Source: Parcubacteria group bacterium (GTDB lineage: Bacteria; Patescibacteriota; Minisyncoccia; JACPHC01). From it: 64,000 nucleotides of DNA. The notes beneath the pieces were generated by a model that worked only from the letters and a program-made list of their open reading frames with translations, was not told the DNA's origin and made no database searches. The stretch spans positions 28,097 through 92,096 of the forward strand of contig JACPHC010000007.1 of assembly GCA_016188775.1 (NCBI GenBank), in the 5' to 3' direction. Of this stretch, positions 4,688 to 63,588 are shown in pieces. Each line of letters starts with the position of its first letter. The stretch's first letter is position 1. The translations under genes were made by a program, and so were the position numbers.

Positions 4688-5074
4688 TTATTTCGCTTCG
4701 TTATAATATTTAATAACTTTTTCAATTATCGTGTCAATTCTGGCGTTGGCTTTGATTAAAAAATCCGCTATTCCCAGAGCTTTAATTTTATCCACGTCGG
4801 CCATTTGGCTTAAATTAGAAATAACGATCACAGGGACGCTTTTCCAGCTTTCAATTTTTTTTATTTCCGAAAGTATTTCAAACCCGGACGCTCCGGGAAG
4901 CATCAAATCAAGGATAATCACGGTCGGCGGATTGCTTTTCGGGTCTTTTATGTAATTAAGCGCTTCTTTGCCGTTAATCAAAGGTTTTACCATCGCGTTT
5001 TGCTTGGCAAATTTAAGTTGGTAAGCCCTTTGGACCGATTGGTCGTCTTCAATTATGAGAATGTATTTTTCCAT
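4688..5074 (-). CDS. single-domain response regulator (receiver only)
   Basis: CheY-like fold with the DD...D...K residues. It is a close paralogue of the response regulator at 8058..8447. Its start overlaps the stop of the upstream response regulator by 1 nt. Confidence 0.8.
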   Translation of the reverse strand: MEKYILIIEDDQSVQRAYQLKFAKQNAMVKPLINGKEALNYIKDPKSNPPTVIILDLMLPGASGFEILSEIKKIESWKSVPVIVISNLSQMADVDKIKALGIADFLIKANARIDTIIEKVIKYYNEAK

Positions 5075-5460
5075 TACGCTTTTCCTTTATCCATTAACAT
5101 TGAAACTTCATTTATAAGGTTATCAAGTTTCCATTCGCTTTTGACAAAATATTCCAGGACCGAGAGTTTTTTAACTTCGTCTTTGGTGTCAAAGGTGCCG
5201 GAGACCGAGACAACCACCACTTTTTTGTCTTTTAATTCCGGTTCCCCCCTTAATTTTTTCAAAAAATCAAAGCCGGACATTTTGGGCAGCCGTAAATCAA
5301 GCCAAATAAGATCGATTTTTTCCGTTTTAAGCGAATTCATCGCTTCTTCGGCGGTGAAAGCGGAAAATGTTTTAAAGCCTTTTTCTTTAAGTCTTTCCAC
5401 GATAATTGAATTTAAGGCTTTTTCATCTTCAACAACAAGAATTGTTTTCACGTTTTCCAT
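5074..5460 (-). CDS. single-domain response regulator (receiver only)
   Basis: VVEDE...DLIWLDLRLPKMSGFDFL receiver motifs; 128 aa. Confidence 0.8.
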   Translation of the reverse strand: MENVKTILVVEDEKALNSIIVERLKEKGFKTFSAFTAEEAMNSLKTEKIDLIWLDLRLPKMSGFDFLKKLRGEPELKDKKVVVVSVSGTFDTKDEVKKLSVLEYFVKSEWKLDNLINEVSMLMDKGKA

Positions 5461-5488
5461 AAAAATTTATTTTTTTCGTTTTATTAAA

Positions 5489-7342
5489 TCAAGCTAAAGA
5501 GATAGTAAAATAAAAAGTCGCGCCTTTGCCTTCTTCGGATTCAAACCAAATTTTTCCTTCCCATAATTCCACCAATTTTTTGATCAAAGCCAGACCCAAG
5601 CCGTTGCCTTCGGGTATTTCAGTTACGGCGTTGTCGGCTCTGAAAAATTTTTCAAAAATATTTTTTTGCTGTTCTTTCGGTATTCCGATCCCGTTATCTT
5701 TAACCGAATAAATCAAAGTGTTTTCCGTTGCCGGGTCTTTTTCTATTTTTATTTCTATCGCGCCGTCTGTCCGCGTGTAATTTATCGCGTTTGAAAGAAG
5801 ATTAGTTATGACTTGCTCAAGCATAGTCAGGTCGGCCAGGGCATTTGCCAATTCTTTCGGGGGTTCGATAAAATTAACTTTGTGGTTTTTATTTTTAATA
5901 AGAGGGGAAAGATTTTTGACGATGTTATTCGTAACGTCCGAGAGATTAAGGCTAGTCATTTCATTTTTAATTCTGCCGCCTTCTATTCGCGCCAGAGACA
6001 AAAGCATATTAATGGTTTCGTTAAGCTTTAAAATTCCGGCATAAATTTGGCCAACGAAGTTTTTTTGGTCTTCATTAAGGGGCCCGGCATCTTCGCTTTC
6101 TATCATTTCGGTGTACCACCTCATGGTTGTCAGAGGAGTGCGCAACTGGTGGGAAGCGACGGAAATAAAACTGCTTTTCGTTTCGTCAATCTTTTTTTCT
6201 TCTTCGTTGTCCCTGAAAACGATTATGGCTCCGGTTATTCGCCCGGCCTCGTCTTTAAACGGAGCGGCTGTCAGAACAACGGGGAGTCTTTTTCCGGCCT
6301 TAGTTTCAAAATAATAATCGTCTTTTAACGATATTTCCATCGGTTTTCCGGTTTTTAACACGATTGCCGCGGGTCTTTTTTCTTCTTCTATTTTTTTTGA
6401 TCCCTGATAAACAAAAAAAACATCGCTGATTTTTTTTTCAACCGCGTCCGCTGTTTTAATTTCAAGAAGTTTTTCGCCTTTTTGATTGATGAGCGCGATT
6501 TTGAAAGACGAATCAATCAAAAGAACGCCGTCATCCATTGAAGAAATTAAAGTTTTAAACCGTTCGTATTCGTTTCTTATGTTTAACAGAGAGGTTTTTA
6601 GCTTAAGGCGCATATTGTCAAAATCGCCGATAAATTTTCCAAGCTCGTCATTTGATTTGTACGCGATTTTAAAATCAAAATTCTCTTTGCCGATGGCTTC
6701 GGAGCCTTTTTCAAGGATTTTTATCGGATTTTTAATGAATATTTGGAAAATAATGAAAATAGCGATAAAAATAAAAGCCCCGCCGATTCCAAGCGCTAAA
6801 ATAATGTTGTTAATTTGCGTCGTTATCGGGTTTAAAACGGCGTCAAGGACATCGTGAATTTCCACAACGCCCATAATTTGGCCGTTAATATTTATCGGGA
6901 TATAAATATCGAGAAAATCTCCGATTTCTGTTTCTTTAGGCTCGTTTTCATCTTCTTTTTTTTCTTCAAAAAACGATTTTTTTTCTTCCAGCGCGCGGCT
7001 GACATCCCGATGTTTCGGAAAATTTAGTCCGATCAAAGACTTGATGCTGGAAAATAATATTTTTTTATCGGCGCTCCAAATAGAAAAGCGGACTGTCCCC
7101 GGCGTCTTGATGTCTTCGCTGAAAATTTTGAATTTTTCCCGACTGGCCAGATCTTCCGGGTTAGAAAAATTTTCAGACAGAAGTTTTTCTTTTACCTTTT
7201 TATTTACCGTTTCGTTAATTCTTAAAAATTCCTCCTTGATAAATGAATTTTTTAATTGCTGGCGGATAAAAAAACCGATAATGGCAATAATGAAAATTAA
7301 AATTGCGATAACCGGTATCGTTATTTTATAGATAAGTTTCAT
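5489..7342 (-). CDS. sensor histidine kinase: two transmembrane helices, an extracytoplasmic sensor domain, HAMP, PAS, and HisKA-HATPase
   Basis: H-box SHQLRTPLT and N/G boxes (NLLSNAINYT, DNGIGI, GNGLGLALIKKL); two transmembrane helices flank a periplasmic domain of about 150 aa. Confidence 0.85.
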   Translation of the reverse strand: MKLIYKITIPVIAILIFIIAIIGFFIRQQLKNSFIKEEFLRINETVNKKVKEKLLSENFSNPEDLASREKFKIFSEDIKTPGTVRFSIWSADKKILFSSIKSLIGLNFPKHRDVSRALEEKKSFFEEKKEDENEPKETEIGDFLDIYIPININGQIMGVVEIHDVLDAVLNPITTQINNIILALGIGGAFIFIAIFIIFQIFIKNPIKILEKGSEAIGKENFDFKIAYKSNDELGKFIGDFDNMRLKLKTSLLNIRNEYERFKTLISSMDDGVLLIDSSFKIALINQKGEKLLEIKTADAVEKKISDVFFVYQGSKKIEEEKRPAAIVLKTGKPMEISLKDDYYFETKAGKRLPVVLTAAPFKDEAGRITGAIIVFRDNEEEKKIDETKSSFISVASHQLRTPLTTMRWYTEMIESEDAGPLNEDQKNFVGQIYAGILKLNETINMLLSLARIEGGRIKNEMTSLNLSDVTNNIVKNLSPLIKNKNHKVNFIEPPKELANALADLTMLEQVITNLLSNAINYTRTDGAIEIKIEKDPATENTLIYSVKDNGIGIPKEQQKNIFEKFFRADNAVTEIPEGNGLGLALIKKLVELWEGKIWFESEEGKGATFYFTISLA

Positions 7343-15273: not shown

Positions 15274-16347
15274 ATGTTTTTATTCGGCGGAAAAAAAAGT
15301 TTTTTAGGCATTGATATTGGCACGACTTCCATCAAGATGGTAGAATTGGAAAAAGATCGAGTTGCCCGTCTCGTTACTTATGGCGAATTGGTTTTCAGGG
15401 AAAGCGATTCGATCAAATTGCTTGAGTCGGAAATGGCCGATTTTGTCAGGAAAATTTTGAAAGAATCCGGAGCGGCCAGCAAATCAGCCGTGATGTCTAT
15501 TCCTCTTTTTTCGAGTTTTTTAACAGTCGTTGAATTGCCGGCCATGAGCCAAGCCGAATTGGTTAAAGCCATTCCTTTTGAAGCCAAGGAATTTATTCCT
15601 GTCCCGATTGACGATGTCGTTTTGGATTGGCAGATAATCAGGGAGAAATTTTTGCCCAATCCCCGCGGTCCAAAATTCGAGCCGGTTAAAAAAATCGATG
15701 TTCTTTTAATAGTCGTGCCCAAAGAAACTATTTCTCGATATACTCGGATTGCCGAAGAAGCCGGCCTTTCATTGCTGGCATTGGAAGTCGAGCCGTTAAG
15801 TTTGGGCCGTTTGATTAAATTGATTCGGGCCGATGAAAAAGATCCGGGACTGTCTCTTGTTTTGGATATGGGCGAGCGGTATACTAATATCAGTATCATT
15901 GATAAAGGATTGCCGGTTTTGACTCACAGTATCGAGATCGCCGGCAGGGAGCTGACTAAAGCCTTGGTTCAGTCGGTTGGCATTAGCTGGGAAAGAGCGG
16001 AAGAAATCAAGCGCGAGCAGGGCTTGTCCGGCCAAGGAGGGGAGGCGCCGCTTTCCGATCTTTTAATTACGATTACGGATCGTTTAATTGCCGAACTGGA
16101 GCGCGTTATTTCCGATTTTAAACAAAAAAATGAAAAGAAAATCGATAAAATATTTGTTGCCGGCGGATCAGCCGCTCTTCCCGGCTTATCGGATTATTTG
16201 AATAAAAAATTTTCCCTGGCAGTCGTCGCTTTAAATCCTTTTTCAAAAATTGACCACCCAACGGTTTTGGATTCGGCGCTTGATAAATACGGATCGACTT
16301 TAAGCATTGCCTCGGGCCTGGCTTTAAGGCAAATCATCGAATCTTAA
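15274..16347 (+). CDS. pilM: type IV pilus assembly protein PilM (actin-like ATPase)
   Basis: LGIDIGTTSIKMVEL with an ASKHA fold; located in the pilus locus. Confidence 0.85.
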   Translation: MFLFGGKKSFLGIDIGTTSIKMVELEKDRVARLVTYGELVFRESDSIKLLESEMADFVRKILKESGAASKSAVMSIPLFSSFLTVVELPAMSQAELVKAIPFEAKEFIPVPIDDVVLDWQIIREKFLPNPRGPKFEPVKKIDVLLIVVPKETISRYTRIAEEAGLSLLALEVEPLSLGRLIKLIRADEKDPGLSLVLDMGERYTNISIIDKGLPVLTHSIEIAGRELTKALVQSVGISWERAEEIKREQGLSGQGGEAPLSDLLITITDRLIAELERVISDFKQKNEKKIDKIFVAGGSAALPGLSDYLNKKFSLAVVALNPFSKIDHPTVLDSALDKYGSTLSIASGLALRQIIES

Positions 16348-16918: not shown

Positions 16919-17467
16919 ATGTTTTTAAGAAATTTTATCATTACGATTTTGAGTCTGGCTATTATCATTGGCGGTCCGGTTTTTTTATTGAAACCGCAAT
17001 CGGAAAAAGCTTATGAGCTTTGGGTTAGAAATCGGGTTTCGACCGAAGAGTTGAAATTGAAAAGACAAATACAAAATCAAAGCCAGGAATTATCCGGAGC
17101 GCTGGATCAGCACAAAGATGAAATAGAAAACCGGCTTAAAATCGCGATTCCGAAAACTCTTGATAAAGCGAGTTTATTGCCTCAATTTGAAACTTTGGCC
17201 GCCAGTAACGGTTTAAATCTCGGATCAGTCGGTTTTGGCAAAGAAGAAACGATTAACGCTTCAATGGGCCTTAAAGCAACGAGTATTGATTTGACAGTAT
17301 CGGGCAATTTGCCTTCTTTTAGGAAATTCTTGGAAAGCCTTGAACAAAATCTTCGGATTTTTGATGTTAATAATTTCAGTTTTACCGCGCCGGCCAAAAC
17401 CGAAGATTTAATGTCGTTCAATTTAAAAATGTCGGTTTATTTTCAAGGCCGTCCATTAATAAAATAA
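16919..17467 (+). CDS. pilO: PilO-like pilus assembly protein
   Basis: Transmembrane helix plus coiled coil, after pilN. Confidence 0.45.
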   Translation: MFLRNFIITILSLAIIIGGPVFLLKPQSEKAYELWVRNRVSTEELKLKRQIQNQSQELSGALDQHKDEIENRLKIAIPKTLDKASLLPQFETLAASNGLNLGSVGFGKEETINASMGLKATSIDLTVSGNLPSFRKFLESLEQNLRIFDVNNFSFTAPAKTEDLMSFNLKMSVYFQGRPLIK

Positions 17468-23593: not shown

Positions 23594-23667
23594 GTCATTG
23601 CGAGCGACCGAAGAAAGCGAAGCAATCTAGCTTTCATAAACGAGATTGCCACGGCGTCTTCGACGTC
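23594..23667. repeat. inverted-repeat miniature element (GTCATTGCGAG...GAAGCAATCT / AGATTGCC...CTCGCGATGAC)
   Basis: Imperfect 74-bp palindrome. The same arms flank the GIY-YIG remnant at 52.6-52.9 kb. Confidence 0.6.
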
Positions 23668-23781
23668 TCGCGATGACAAAAAATAAGTTTTCGGATAGTT
23701 TCTGAAAATTTTAAAATTAAAATCCCCTTGATTAACATCAAAGGGATTTTAATTTTAAATCGTTTGAAAATTTAATTAACT

Positions 23782-23911
23782 GTCATTGCGAGGAGCGAAG
23801 CGACGAAGCAATCTCAATAATATTAGCTAAAATACGAGATTGCCACGCTCCTTTCAGTCTCTCGCAATGACGCATGGGATTGCTTCGGCGATTTTATCGC
23901 CTCGCAATGAC
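23782..23911. repeat. second inverted-repeat miniature element (23782..23871) plus an extra half-arm (23878..23911)
   Basis: The same GTCATTGCGAG/GAAGCAATC arms; the half-arm GATTGCTTCGGCGATTTTATCGCCTCGCAATGAC matches 52588..52622 in reverse complement. Confidence 0.6.
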
Positions 23912-51300: not shown

Positions 51301-51392
51301 ACGCGTCAATATAAATATCAAACTAAATTTAGTCAAGACAAATTTAACAAACAGAAAATAAAGCGTTAGATTAATTTTCATTATTCATCGGA

Positions 51393-51461
51393 AGGTTTCA
51401 AAATCAATTATAGCATTTTCTTTCATACTACGTAGTATGAAAGAAAATGCTATAATTGATT
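51393..51461. repeat. 60-bp perfect palindromic element with an outer GGTTTCAAAATCAA arm (left terminal-inverted-repeat-like copy)
   Basis: aatcaattatagcattttctttcatactacgtagtatgaaagaaaatgctataattgatt. An inverted copy lies at 63336..63390 and a degenerate copy at 62697..62730. Confidence 0.65.
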
Positions 51462-51699
51462 TTTTTATCTTCTTAAAAGATTTTCTAATTATTTAAAGAG
51501 TTGATTTTTTTCTCATGCTTTTTTAAAAATAGCCTAGTTTGTTGACTTATTGATTTATATATTTATACTGAATTTTAATGAATCCCGCACGGAGCCGCGA
51601 TCGCTTCTTCTTGGGATACGCATAAATATTATAAATTAGAAATTATAAAAATTAATACAAGCGGATTGCGTCTTTTGATCGCGATTTGCTTCGTACGGG

Positions 51700-52320
51700 A
51701 TGAACCAGTTTTCCGAAAAAAATCTTAAATTAGCTATTGCTCTCCATCGTTTAACGACCTTTTTCCCCGAAGAAGAGATTCTGAAAAACCAGCTTCAAGA
51801 AAAAGCCAATGAAATATTTACTAATTCTTATTTGTTGGAAGAAGATGGCTTGAATCTGCCTGACGATAAGAGAATTGATGTTAAATATAATTTATTGGCC
51901 AGCCTTCGTTTAATGAACGGTTTTTTGCTTTTAGCCAAAAATTTGGATTTCCCCAAAAAAGAAAGCCTGGAAATATTGGAAAATGAATATCAGAAAATTT
52001 TCGAACAATTAAAGTATAAATTTGAAGAAAAAATTAACCATTTTGAAAGAGAAATTGATAGCGTTGAAAAAGAAAAGGAGCCGATTTTATCCCAGCTTTC
52101 TTCCCGACAATTAAGAATTATCAAAGAGATTAAGAAAAACAAAGAAATGCGAGTGGGGGATTTGGCCCATACTTTTGGAAACCGGTTTTCTCCCAAAACA
52201 TTTCAGCGGGAACTTCAAGAATTAATGGCTAGAGGATTAATTGAAAGAACCGGAGATTATAAAAACACTTATTATGTTTTATCCCGAGGGCTTGAAAAAG
52301 TTATAAACCCCGTTCATTAA
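51700..52320 (+). CDS. DNA-binding protein with a C-terminal winged helix-turn-helix (possible regulator or replication-initiator-like protein)
   Basis: C-terminal LSSRQLRIIKEIKKNKEMRVGDLAHTFG...ELMARGLIERTGDYKNTYYVL wHTH pattern, followed directly by a repeat array. Confidence 0.45.
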   Translation: MNQFSEKNLKLAIALHRLTTFFPEEEILKNQLQEKANEIFTNSYLLEEDGLNLPDDKRIDVKYNLLASLRLMNGFLLLAKNLDFPKKESLEILENEYQKIFEQLKYKFEEKINHFEREIDSVEKEKEPILSQLSSRQLRIIKEIKKNKEMRVGDLAHTFGNRFSPKTFQRELQELMARGLIERTGDYKNTYYVLSRGLEKVINPVH

Positions 52321-52331
52321 TCAGTAATTTT

Positions 52332-52503
52332 ACGGGACAATTCGGGACATTAATCGGACAATTTATCGGACAAAATATTGTGAAAGAAAATATTTATATT
52401 TGTCCGATAAAATTTATCGCTTTACTCAGATTTTAATTCAAAAATTTTTCAATTTTGTATATTAACAATTTATCAGACAATTTAAGACATTTGTCTGATA
52501 AAT
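52332..52503. promoter_or_regulatory. iteron/operator-like array: at least seven copies of ATC(G/A)GACAA in direct and inverted orientation, including four direct repeats phased at 10-12 bp
   Basis: Direct copies at 52332, 52342, 52353, 52365 and 52471; inverted copies at 52400 and 52491. They form two palindromes, TTATCGGACAA-N27-TTGTCCGATAA and TTATCAGACAA-N11-TTGTCTGATAA. Confidence 0.55.
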
Positions 52504-52554
52504 CGAGTTAAACTTTAATAATATACTTCATTACTCCTAAGCAAAACATTTTAC

Positions 52555-52866
52555 TTGTCGTTGCGAGAAGGTATAAACCGACCCATTTGTCATCGCGAGG
52601 CGATAAAATCGCCGAAGCAATCTTTCAATGGTTATGAACTAAAAGCATTATTATATATACAATATACATACACATTAAAATATAACATTATAAAACTCGT
52701 TTATTACGAAACTTTTGACAGTCCGGAGGTAGCTATTCAAAGAAAAAAACAAACTAAAGGCGGTTCCCGTAAAAAGAAAATATATTTAATAAAAAGCATC
52801 AACCCTGAATTTAAAGATTTGAGTGATTCTCTTTGAGATTGCTTCGCCTTCGGCTCGCAATGACAA
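52555..52866 (+). pseudogene. decayed GIY-YIG nuclease gene bracketed by the GTCATYGCGAG / GAAGCAATCT inverted repeats
   Basis: Retains the C-terminal ...KLVYYETFDSPEVAIQRKKQTKGGSRKKKIYLIKSINPEFKDL of small GIY-YIG proteins; the N-terminal GIY/YIG region is shortened and degenerate (LLYIQYT). Inverted repeats lie at 52588..52622 and 52835..52866. Confidence 0.5.
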
Positions 52867-52927
52867 ATTAAAGTAAGATAATGTTCGCTTATCGGAAAAA
52901 TAACATTACAATTAAATGATATTTTCT

Positions 52928-53000
52928 GTCGTCATTGCGAGGCGATGAAATCGCCGAAGCAATCTCTCAATGACAAAGCAAATTCGGCTCGCAATGACAA
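52928..53000. repeat. further copy of the GTCATTGCGAG...GAAGCAATC / CTCGCAATGAC miniature element
   Basis: gtcattgcgaggcgatgaaatcgccgaagcaatctctcaatgacaaagcaaattcggctcgcaatgac. Confidence 0.6.
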
Positions 53001-62782: not shown

Positions 62783-63313
62783 ATGGCTAAATTTTTAAAA
62801 AGGAATCGTTTAACCAAAGAAGAGCAAGAAAAAGCGGTGCTTACTCTTTGCCAGGCCTTGGTTGTTATTAAAGATTTTAATGAGGCGGCAAGTTTACTTG
62901 TTGATCTTTTTTCACGTCAAGAAATGGAAATGATAGCCAAACGTTTAATGATTGCTAAATTTCTTATTCAAGGGAAAAGTTACGATGATATTCGTCAAAA
63001 TCTAAAAGTGAGTCATGCTACTATCGCGAGGGTTAGCTCTTGGCTAGAACAATCCGGCGCGGGGTATCGTTTAGTGATTGAACGGTCAAAAAATTTAAAA
63101 TTATCAGAATTATCAAAAAGCAAGATTTCCAATTGGAGTCAATTGAGACGACGTTATCCTTTATATTTTTGGCCCCAGATTCTTCTTGAAGAAATAGTTC
63201 GTAAAGCGCAAAAAAGAGATCGAGATAAATTACTTAATACCTTAGATGTATTGAAAAAAGCGGGAGAAAAGAATCAACTTTTTAAACAATTAGAAAATCT
63301 TTTAAGAAGATAA
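62783..63313 (+). CDS. TrpR-related YerC/YecD-family DNA-binding protein
   Basis: AKRLMIAKFLIQGKSYDDIRQNLKVSHATIARVS matches the Trp-repressor-like HTH pattern; 176 aa. Confidence 0.5.
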   Translation: MAKFLKRNRLTKEEQEKAVLTLCQALVVIKDFNEAASLLVDLFSRQEMEMIAKRLMIAKFLIQGKSYDDIRQNLKVSHATIARVSSWLEQSGAGYRLVIERSKNLKLSELSKSKISNWSQLRRRYPLYFWPQILLEEIVRKAQKRDRDKLLNTLDVLKKAGEKNQLFKQLENLLRR

Positions 63314-63335
63314 AATTTAATTATATTAATTATTA

Positions 63336-63390
63336 CATTTTCTTTCATACTACGTAGTATGAAAGAAAATTTAATTTTGATTTTGAAACC
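63336..63390. repeat. right (inverted) copy of the 60-bp palindromic element, with the GGTTTCAAAATCAA arm on the outside
   Basis: cattttctttcatactacgtagtatgaaagaaaat plus ttaattttgattttgaaacc. It is the reverse complement of the left copy's outer arm. Confidence 0.65.
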
Positions 63391-63588
63391 CCCTGATGAA
63401 AATGAAAATTTCATCTAACGCCTTATTTTCCGTTTGTTTTTCAAAACAGATTATCTCCATTACAATTTATGATGACAATTCAGCCGGAGTTATTACCTAT
63501 TAATTTGCCTCAGGAGTCCAAAATTGGGTGGCATTATGCATTGATTTGACATTTTATTATCATTTGTTAGTTTTAAATTTATCAAAAT

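Follow-up and report, generated by a model that had tools for sequence, protein, structure and literature searches.

The 64-kb stretch of DNA analysed here (hereafter the window) very probably carries a decayed Ssn/SRM module, that is, a nuclease gene lying between inverted hairpin repeats, with gene-less copies of the same repeats in intergenic DNA. The locus is a new example of a module whose kind is already known. [quoted passage not shown] 2025, Nat Commun, PMC11893778). In Neisseria, where SsnA is NMV_0044/NMB0047, the repeat is called NTS (CGTCATTCCCGCGMAVGCGGGAATCYRG), and the general name for such repeats is "Ssn-related motif" (SRM) (PMC11893778). In purified form, Ssn proteins from three Neisseria species and from Wolbachia bound the hairpin and cleaved single-stranded DNA (ssDNA) exclusively, on one strand, just upstream of the repeat; SsnA neither cleaved double-stranded DNA (dsDNA) nor bound RNA in vitro, and its cleavage modulates natural transformation in N. 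meningitidis (PMC11893778).

The nuclease gene of the window is a pseudogene (52634–52836, plus strand), whose ancestor encoded a single-domain GIY-YIG protein of about 96 aa. It opens with an ATG at 52634, has a TAA at codon 3 (52640–52642), and closes with the stop codon TGA at 52834–52836. Alignment of the DNA with two intact genes, from loci L001 and L002, revealed that 88 nt were deleted after approximately 52665, which shifted the frame and removed the segment MTNK...VEG with the YIG, Arg, and His positions. The start codon, the C-terminal half (52669–52833), and the stop codon were retained, and the 55 codons of this half were 78%–85% identical to the intact GIY-YIG proteins P0001–P0003 (86–96 aa). 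These results bear out the preliminary description of this DNA, which had proposed a decayed GIY-YIG gene with a conserved C-terminal half and a shortened N-terminal half. The proteins P0001–P0003 come from Parcubacteria/Patescibacteria-type assemblies.

A 93-aa open reading frame (ORF) starting at TTG 52555 was rejected as a real gene and regarded as an artefact; its reading frame runs through the repeat, and it had no Pfam or NCBIfam match, because the catalytic half is missing. The Logan contig L003, an independent assembly from another data set, was 100% identical across positions 51434–52791 of the window, indicating that the pseudogene is not an assembly error. The organism also occurs in the SRA runs SRR12113420 and SRR12113424. 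The dN/dS of the surviving C-terminal half was 0.08, that between two intact genes was 0.025, and one nearly invariant Glu of the remnant was changed to Lys, which suggests that ssn function in the window was lost fairly recently. No second ssn copy was detected within the 64-kb window, where the single copy is dead. The locus is intergenic, located between a 206-aa ORF and the gene for a 1270-aa PG_binding (wall-binding) protein.

To place the protein, we used as the SsnA reference a 94-aa ORF of N. gonorrhoeae, which was taken as the orthologue on three grounds: its length, the NTS copies flanking it, and the lack of any other match in the chromosome. The intact protein P0002 aligned with this ORF without gaps over 85 of 94 residues, with 42% identity, a BLASTP E value of 1e-28, and an hhalign probability of 99.7%. 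Operationally, an Ssn protein is recognized when BLASTP aligns it with Neisseria SsnA at E < 1e-10 and the alignment covers no less than 75% of the protein (PMC11893778), and P0002 is therefore an Ssn protein by this measure. The remnant in the window was itself 40% identical to the N. gonorrhoeae orthologue over its 50 residues (E = 6e-11). Given the 42% identity to the NTS-flanked SsnA orthologue, the system corresponds to the Ssn nuclease and SRM of Chenal et al. 2025.

The repeats stand out clearly from the background of the window. When one mismatch at most was allowed, the box GTCATYGCGAG occurred 12 times in 64 kb against 1.09 expected, and none of 100 shuffles reached 12; the box GAAGCAATCT was found together with it. 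The hairpin-forming repeat is 26–40 nt long; its unit of about 35 nt consists of YGTCATTGCGAG, a variable stretch of 8–16 nt (the apical hairpin), and GAAGCAATCTC, as exemplified by GTCATTGCGAGGCGATGAAATCGCCGAAGCAATCTC. Chance as the origin of the repeats was ruled out by the shuffle counts and by the permuted stem-partner control described below.

As the preliminary description had claimed, the remnant is bracketed by inverted repeats. A forward (F) SRM-like unit, GTCATCGCGAG-GCGATAAAATCGCC-GAAGCAATCT, was located at 52589–52624 on the plus strand, 9 nt upstream of the ssn start codon, and a reverse (R) SRM-like unit, reading GTCATTGCGAG-CCGAAGGC-GAAGCAATCT on the minus strand, was located at 52836–52864 and overlaps the ssn stop codon. 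A T>C change disrupts one basal-stem pair of the F unit, and the R unit folds into a two-tier hairpin of −6.4 kcal/mol. Directly upstream of the full F unit there is a 5ʹ half-unit (52557–52588, plus strand), composed of the GTCGTTGCGAG box and about 20 nt without the 3ʹ box. Such a "stutter" of 5ʹ boxes was observed in 47 cases in 18 of 84 ssn loci.

The gene-less elements that had been reported earlier are all present, but some of their coordinates required small corrections: the first ends at 23677 instead of 23667, the stretch 23782–23911 holds three units, and the third element spans 52931–52998. The last is a doublet, in which a forward unit (52931–52966, plus strand; −8.9 kcal/mol, z = −2.2) is followed by a truncated reverse unit (52964–52998, minus strand) retaining the 5ʹ box and adjacent bases only, and no hairpin was obtained when the latter was folded alone. 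The group at 23594–23911 is intergenic and lies between the genes for a type IV pilin (N_methyl) and a prepilin peptidase (A24), in agreement with the earlier placement of gene-less elements between a pilin gene and pilD. Its first doublet, downstream of the pilin gene, consists of a forward unit (23594–23629, plus strand) and its reverse partner (23644–23677, minus strand), which has the variant 3ʹ box GTGGCAATC and a T>C change in the basal stem; the doublet folds into one long hairpin of −25.3 kcal/mol (z = −5.8). There follow a forward unit at 23782–23816 (plus strand; GTCATTGCGAGGAGCGAAGCGACGAAGCAATCTC) and reverse units at 23836–23871 (minus strand; 3ʹ box GTGGCAATC) and 23877–23911 (minus strand; −8.9 kcal/mol, z = −3.1). 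The last of these is near-identical to the gene-proximal unit 52589–52624 and shares 97% identity with units of L002 and L003.

Each unit is laid out as a tag (YGTC), a 5-bp basal stem (ATTGC/GCAAT), a purine-rich internal loop with GAG on one side and GAA on the other, a variable apical stem that often ends in a GAA-type triloop, and a tail (CTC). When the elements were folded, as the preliminary description had proposed, 4 of the 10 window units formed two-tier hairpins (basal stem, internal loop, and apical stem) as ssDNA, while the others were degenerate, and the window doublets formed long hairpins with z = −5.8, −5.1, and −2.9, the last value being that of the whole doublet 52931–52998. 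Anchors without a perfect partner made up 4 of 10 in the window versus about 10% in intact loci; this fits with decay, although the numbers are small.

To avoid circularity in testing the basal stem, we used only the 5ʹ half of the unit as the anchor (GTCAYNNNGAR) and sought its partner within 64 nt. For 267 of 298 ATTGC anchors, GCAATC was present downstream within 64 nt. Among 184 anchors with variant stems (ATCCT, ATTCT, ATTTC, ATTCC, ATGCT, ACCCC, and others), 78 had their own exact complement, whereas permuted partners gave 2.9 on average and 9 at most. The variant stems thus had their own complements far more often than in the permuted control, indicating that the stem is maintained by compensatory change, and the basal hairpin stem was shown by these comparative counts to covary across units. 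With DNA energy parameters, the strand that carries the tag gave a better fold than the opposite strand in 291 of 321 distinct units, and the commonest apical loops among the 321 were the triloops GAA, AAG, and GCA. In the same set, position −1 was T in 208 and C in 78 units (T or C in 286 of 321), and the base after the fixed A was T in 315; GTC and A were invariant in these counts because the search demanded both. The 3ʹ side ends with AT, followed by a tail of C and then T/C, and unit lengths peaked at 26, 32, and 37 nt within an overall range of 24 to about 70 nt. Upon comparing the basal-stem variants with the protein phylogeny, the nearest neighbour was of the same stem type in 0 of 18 proteins, and this sample thus offers no evidence that basal-stem sequence follows the protein phylogeny.

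We further investigated whether intact relatives of the gene carry the same repeats. Scanning one genome per species yielded more than 584 relatives, and the loci of the best 80 were analysed. These 80 proteins were 57%–73% identical to the CPR protein and came from approximately 18 phyla, and their ranking followed no taxonomic order. The intact relatives were 86–106 aa long, with PF01541 as the sole Pfam domain. Hosts among the best 80 of the more than 584 included cyanobacteria, Chloroflexota, Bacteroidota, Patescibacteria, Omnitrophota, Planctomycetota, and several proteobacterial classes, as well as Atribacterota, Elusimicrobiota, Nitrospirota, Deferribacterota, Spirochaetota, Bacillota, and others.

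With a generic unit definition (GTC, a 5-nt stem, a gap, the stem complement, and C), the 200 nt upstream of the gene contained an F unit in 57 of these best 80 loci and the 200 nt downstream an R unit in 65, against a chance expectation of about 0.04 per side. Units were present on both sides in 50 and on at least one side in 72 of the 80. The module is compact: the start codon follows the F unit after approximately 10–30 nt, and the R unit reaches the stop codon. For L001 and L002, the gap between F unit and start codon was about 10 nt and the R unit overlapped the stop codon, and in 11 loci among the best 80 the R unit began 1 nt past the stop. Of 63 gene-bracketing unit pairs, 38 had the F...R arrangement, and the remaining three arrangements together accounted for 25. 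The F...R brackets were spaced 297–350 nt for a gene of about 285 nt, with their GTCAT tags facing outward from the gene. As a control, we used 517 kb of loci without ssn, picked for a T2SS gene related to one in the window. The ssn loci, about 0.75 Mb in total, contained 345 paired units and the control loci contained 2, a density approximately 100 times higher in the former. The preliminary description had asked both whether intact GIY-YIG genes in relatives are bracketed and whether the repeats are tied to the nuclease gene, and both were answered positively by these counts, which support a specific association of the repeat with the small GIY-YIG gene as a family-wide trait. Its remark that this association would be worth documenting was correct in that the association is real, but the association had already been published (PMC11893778).

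The repeats of the window were then compared with the published SRM search pattern, HGTCWYN(0-2)YYVSBRHN(0-5)WNVSBRGN(0-2)RNCYNB (PMC11893778). This pattern recovered 9 NTS copies in 3.3 kb of N. gonorrhoeae, had no match to the window units, and had none within 200 nt of the best-80 genes. It matched 9 times in 688 kb of loci, and three of these matches flank a second, NTS-type paralogue in the Omnitrophota contig L080, in which two adjacent paralogues each have their own repeat type, one of them NTS-like. The lack of a match, together with the interrupted stem and the variable apical hairpin, indicates a separate repeat subtype. As the pattern is a search device and not a definition, the mismatch marks a subtype and does not exclude membership. 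Neither this subtype nor the outward-tag geometry was found in PMC11893778, PMC3733652, or literature text searches, and a literature search with the repeat string returned unrelated primers only.

Other explanations of the locus were weighed against a decayed Ssn/SRM module. The repeats might act mainly at the RNA level, as terminator, stabiliser, or regulatory hairpins in the manner of classical REPs, with their adjacency to the nuclease reflecting its regulation only. The positions of the units agree with such a role, as they lie in untranslated regions, the first doublet (23594–23677) being preceded by the stop codon of the pilin gene and followed by a strong hairpin at 23718–23760; the F and R units would put complementary hairpins at both ends of the ssn mRNA, and REP-type functions have been reported for CGTC-tagged repeats (PMC3733652). 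However, a search of the repeats against Rfam at gathering and permissive thresholds yielded no family, only tRNAs and sub-threshold noise, and a terminator scan of the pilin–pilD spacer called no terminator-like site. The units occur in either orientation to neighbouring genes and also inside an ORF, and SsnA failed to bind RNA in vitro (PMC11893778). Moreover, GAA-type triloops and G/A-rich internal loops are present on the strand that folds better, and such features are typical of stable DNA mini-hairpins. We therefore consider a primarily RNA-level role improbable.

It is more improbable by far that the gene represents a free-standing I-TevI-type double-strand homing endonuclease with the inverted repeats as homing-site remnants, even though the GIY-YIG catalytic domain, the small size, and the patchy distribution would suit such an enzyme. 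The protein is a single 96-aa domain without a DNA-binding extension, its gene is intergenic and neither splits a host gene nor lies within an intron, and the repeats are multi-copy and dispersed. Its nearest characterised relative, SsnA, leaves dsDNA uncut, and to our knowledge the literature on the Ssn family reports no double-strand cleavage at an insertion-site allele that is unique and lacks the repeat. The homing element envisaged in the preliminary description was thus not sustained, as the protein belongs to the Ssn family, the tested members of which are site-specific ssDNA nucleases.

A different question is whether the decayed Ssn/SRM module was also mobile, and the Ssn paper itself raises the hypothesis of the module as a mobile element (PMC11893778). 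According to this idea, the SRM-ssn-SRM module would be mobile on its own, and the nuclease would mobilise in trans the module's non-autonomous derivatives, namely the gene-less units and doublets. This reading overlaps with that of a decayed Ssn/SRM module, and both can hold. Besides the compact layout of F unit, gene, and R unit and the occurrence of proteins 57%–73% identical to the CPR copy in about 18 phyla among the best 80 of more than 584, several observations are in its favour. The closest intact copies among the matches listed are in unrelated gene neighbourhoods, with no synteny to the window. A Planktothrix plasmid copy is placed between genes of a DISARM operon, and two in-frame arrays lie in a Planktothrix 1560-aa MmeI-like ORF, where a segment of about 75 aa is absent from six homologues, although these are just 59%–71% identical to that ORF. 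At one orthologous site, the number of units is 1, 2, or at least 3 depending on which of three Nostoc species is considered. Within the window, the doublet 52931–52998 is structured like an internally deleted module: its first 42 nt (to 52972) match the left end of the window module at 39 of 42 positions, including the 8-nt gene leader, its left end is identical to that of the intact L002 module at 43 of 43 positions, and 52982–52999 agrees with the module's right end at 18 of 18 positions, with 10 nt separating the left and right parts.

On the other hand, no target-site duplications were detected beyond the shuffled control, and the break points of the Nostoc indels are inside repeat boxes, as unequal recombination between repeats would give. 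The gene-less neighbours are arranged as F-R in 58 and R-F in 64 cases with 5–20-nt linkers, forming alternating BIME-like arrays. There was no close relative among 2.9 million viral contigs, and weak matches to the ssn protein in GenBank phages were limited to Rhizobium phages (about 32% identity). We also know of no GIY-YIG nuclease with strand-transfer activity, which counts against mobility of the module. Regarding the neighbourhood of the window locus, relatives detected in a metagenome scan with the adjacent T2SS F protein reached 45% identity at most, and exact matches to the window neighbour proteins were either absent or on contigs shorter than 2 kb that end short of the repeats.

On this mixed evidence, mobility of the Ssn/SRM module is unproven, and we regard the autonomous element with its non-autonomous derivatives as possible but rather doubtful. 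A bolder version, in which the arrangement of outward hairpin, ssn, and outward hairpin is a self-mobilising element whose GIY-YIG nickase, not an HUH transposase, spreads the hairpin ends and gene-less arrays within genomes and across about 18 phyla, including in-frame coding insertions, with the half-unit "stutters" as copying footprints, appears slightly less likely still. The earlier proposal of internally deleted, MITE-like derivatives accordingly stands for the doublet 52931–52998, with its 39/42 and 18/18 matches to the two module ends, but not more generally, as there are no target-site duplications and the units form alternating arrays, not discrete MITEs. As to the insertion polymorphism that it anticipated, unit content differs at orthologous Nostoc sites, with break points inside the repeats.

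By analogy with the Neisseria and Wolbachia homologues, we infer that enzymes of the window-type subfamily would cleave ssDNA. An intact ssn enzyme would bind the hairpin on the tag-bearing strand only, and would do so only when the DNA is single-stranded, as in replication, transformation, or repair; the better folding of this strand in 291 of 321 units lends indirect support to strand-specific action. It would then nick a few bases 5ʹ of the tag, a cut position deduced from the homologues. As the tags face outward, nicking would take place immediately beyond either end of the module, once on each strand. Since the enzyme gene of the window is dead, the local repeats would either be relics or be acted on as substrates by the enzyme of another copy elsewhere in the genome.

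The Ssn system was described only in 2025, and its enzymes are the first known site-specific nucleases that cut ssDNA exclusively. To this picture the window adds a repeat subtype that was missed by the published pattern and is found with close nuclease homologues in many phyla, and the published counts of "SRM-flanked" genes may therefore be underestimates. It also adds the outward-tag geometry and a case of decay that removed the gene but spared the hairpins. Two questions are sharpened, namely, whether the nuclease spreads its own repeats and what role it plays outside Neisseria, for which the in-frame insertions in Planktothrix, the variation of unit number in Nostoc, and the paired nuclease/hairpin sets in one Omnitrophota contig provide leads.

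Compared with known systems, the closest resemblance is to Ssn/NTS, which shares a single-domain GIY-YIG protein of about 94–96 aa, flanking multi-copy hairpin repeats with a 5ʹ unpaired (C/T)GTC tag followed by a stem starting with AT, and gene-less repeat copies that are both dispersed and clustered. The two differ in that NTS is a simple 8–9-bp stem with a short loop, whereas the window subtype is a two-tier hairpin, and in that the nearest copies in N. gonorrhoeae point their tags toward the gene, whereas those of the window subtype point outward. The hosts recorded here also differ, including CPR/Patescibacteria, cyanobacteria, Chloroflexota, and others, and the window copy is a pseudogene. 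The small GIY-YIG proteins of UPF0213 (BH0048, PDB 1zg2; EF2693, PDB 1ywl) are similar in single-domain fold and size and were the nearest solved structures in a profile search (E = 2e-9 for 1zg2 and 6e-6 for 1ywl), but they are far more distant than SsnA, and we know of no link between them and these repeats.

In architecture, the module resembles REP/REPIN-RAYT systems, BIMEs, and IS200/IS605 elements, in which one small nuclease gene likewise lies between short hairpin repeats that are multi-copy elsewhere; doublets forming long hairpins, alternating arrays, the absence of target-site duplications, and a single-strand biology are also shared. REPIN-RAYT and IS200, however, use an HUH/Y1 tyrosine transposase, whereas the gene here encodes a GIY-YIG nuclease, and the tag is GTAG there and GTC here. 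The repeats themselves can be compared with the superfamily of CGTC/TGTC-tagged REPs, which includes Neisseria dRS3 and Rickettsia RPE-4/-6 and was said to "lack a dedicated transposase", with no dedicated enzyme gene identified (Di Nocera et al. 2013, PMC3733652). Both have an unpaired (C/T)GTC tag, a stem opening with A-T and then T-A pairs, a short tail, and frequent inverted dimers that can fold into larger hairpins. The CGTC/TGTC-tagged REPs have a continuous 8–9-bp stem with a 4–5-nt loop and are mostly head-to-head dimers, whereas the window subtype has an interrupted stem and a variable apex, with both dimer types equally common. Judged by these shared features, the repeats of the window subtype fit into the CGTC/TGTC-tagged REP class, with the difference that here, as in the Ssn paper, the associated gene encodes a GIY-YIG nuclease.

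Truncated 5ʹ half-units of the GTCAT repeat, one to three in tandem, were observed abutting the 5ʹ side of full units. Each half-unit was made up of a GTCAT box and 10–30 nt of frequently pyrimidine-rich sequence, and such stutters occurred in 47 cases distributed over 18 of the 84 loci, with a period mostly of 20–30 nt. They were present in the window at 52557–52588 and, among the loci from other assemblies, in L001, L019, L021, L031, L054, L167, and others. In L167, a locus on a Planktothrix agardhii plasmid (NZ_LR882964.1), GTCAT-repeat arrays at 15405–15596 and 17094–17273 lay within an uninterrupted 1560-aa MmeI-like ORF belonging to a DISARM operon, and the reading frame was kept through the repeats (translation VILSETKDLS...). 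The array segment was absent from six homologues of this ORF, and further homologues carried other insertions at the same spot.

Other repeated elements were also found in the window. Two copies of a repeat of about 150 nt, centred on the perfect palindrome ATTTTCTTTCATACTACGTAGTATGAAAGAAAAT, were located at 51384–51535 (+) and 63245–63396 (−), with a mutual identity of 89%; this repeat is unrelated to the GTCAT repeat. An AT-rich spacer at 52315–52503, located 3ʹ of a 206-aa ORF with weak HTH matches, contained at least six copies of a 13-nt box (TTTATCGGACAAA / TTTGTCCGATAAA) in direct and inverted orientation, a cluster that looks like an operator array. In the pilin-pilD spacer, the two repeat groups were separated by a perfect hairpin at 23718–23760 (AAAATCCCCTTGATTAACATCAAAGGGATTTT). 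This hairpin is probably the pilin terminator, which would place the first repeat doublet within the pilin 3ʹ untranslated region; a simple terminator scan made no call at this hairpin.

As for the source replicons, L084 (NZ_CP119140.1) is a Neisseria gonorrhoeae chromosome of 2.17 Mb that the plasmid collection lists among its plasmids, a labelling error. Several more megabase-scale replicons carried the plasmid label, some of which are probably chromosomes.

Two of the compared loci contained paired ssn genes. L050 harbored two tandem copies (5001–5279 and 5427–5705), each with a forward and a reverse unit of its own. At 52589–52998 of the window, the pseudogene module was separated from the gene-less doublet by 66 nt, and this region may ancestrally have been organized as L050 is. 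In L080, an Omnitrophota MAG locus (JAUSED010000008.1), two adjacent ssn paralogues were located at 5001–5924. The first was flanked by GTCATTCTGAG...GAAGAATC units and the second by NTS-like TGTCATTCCCGCGCAAGCGGGAATC units fitting the published SRM pattern (PMC11893778); L080 is a case of two neighbouring nuclease/hairpin pairs.
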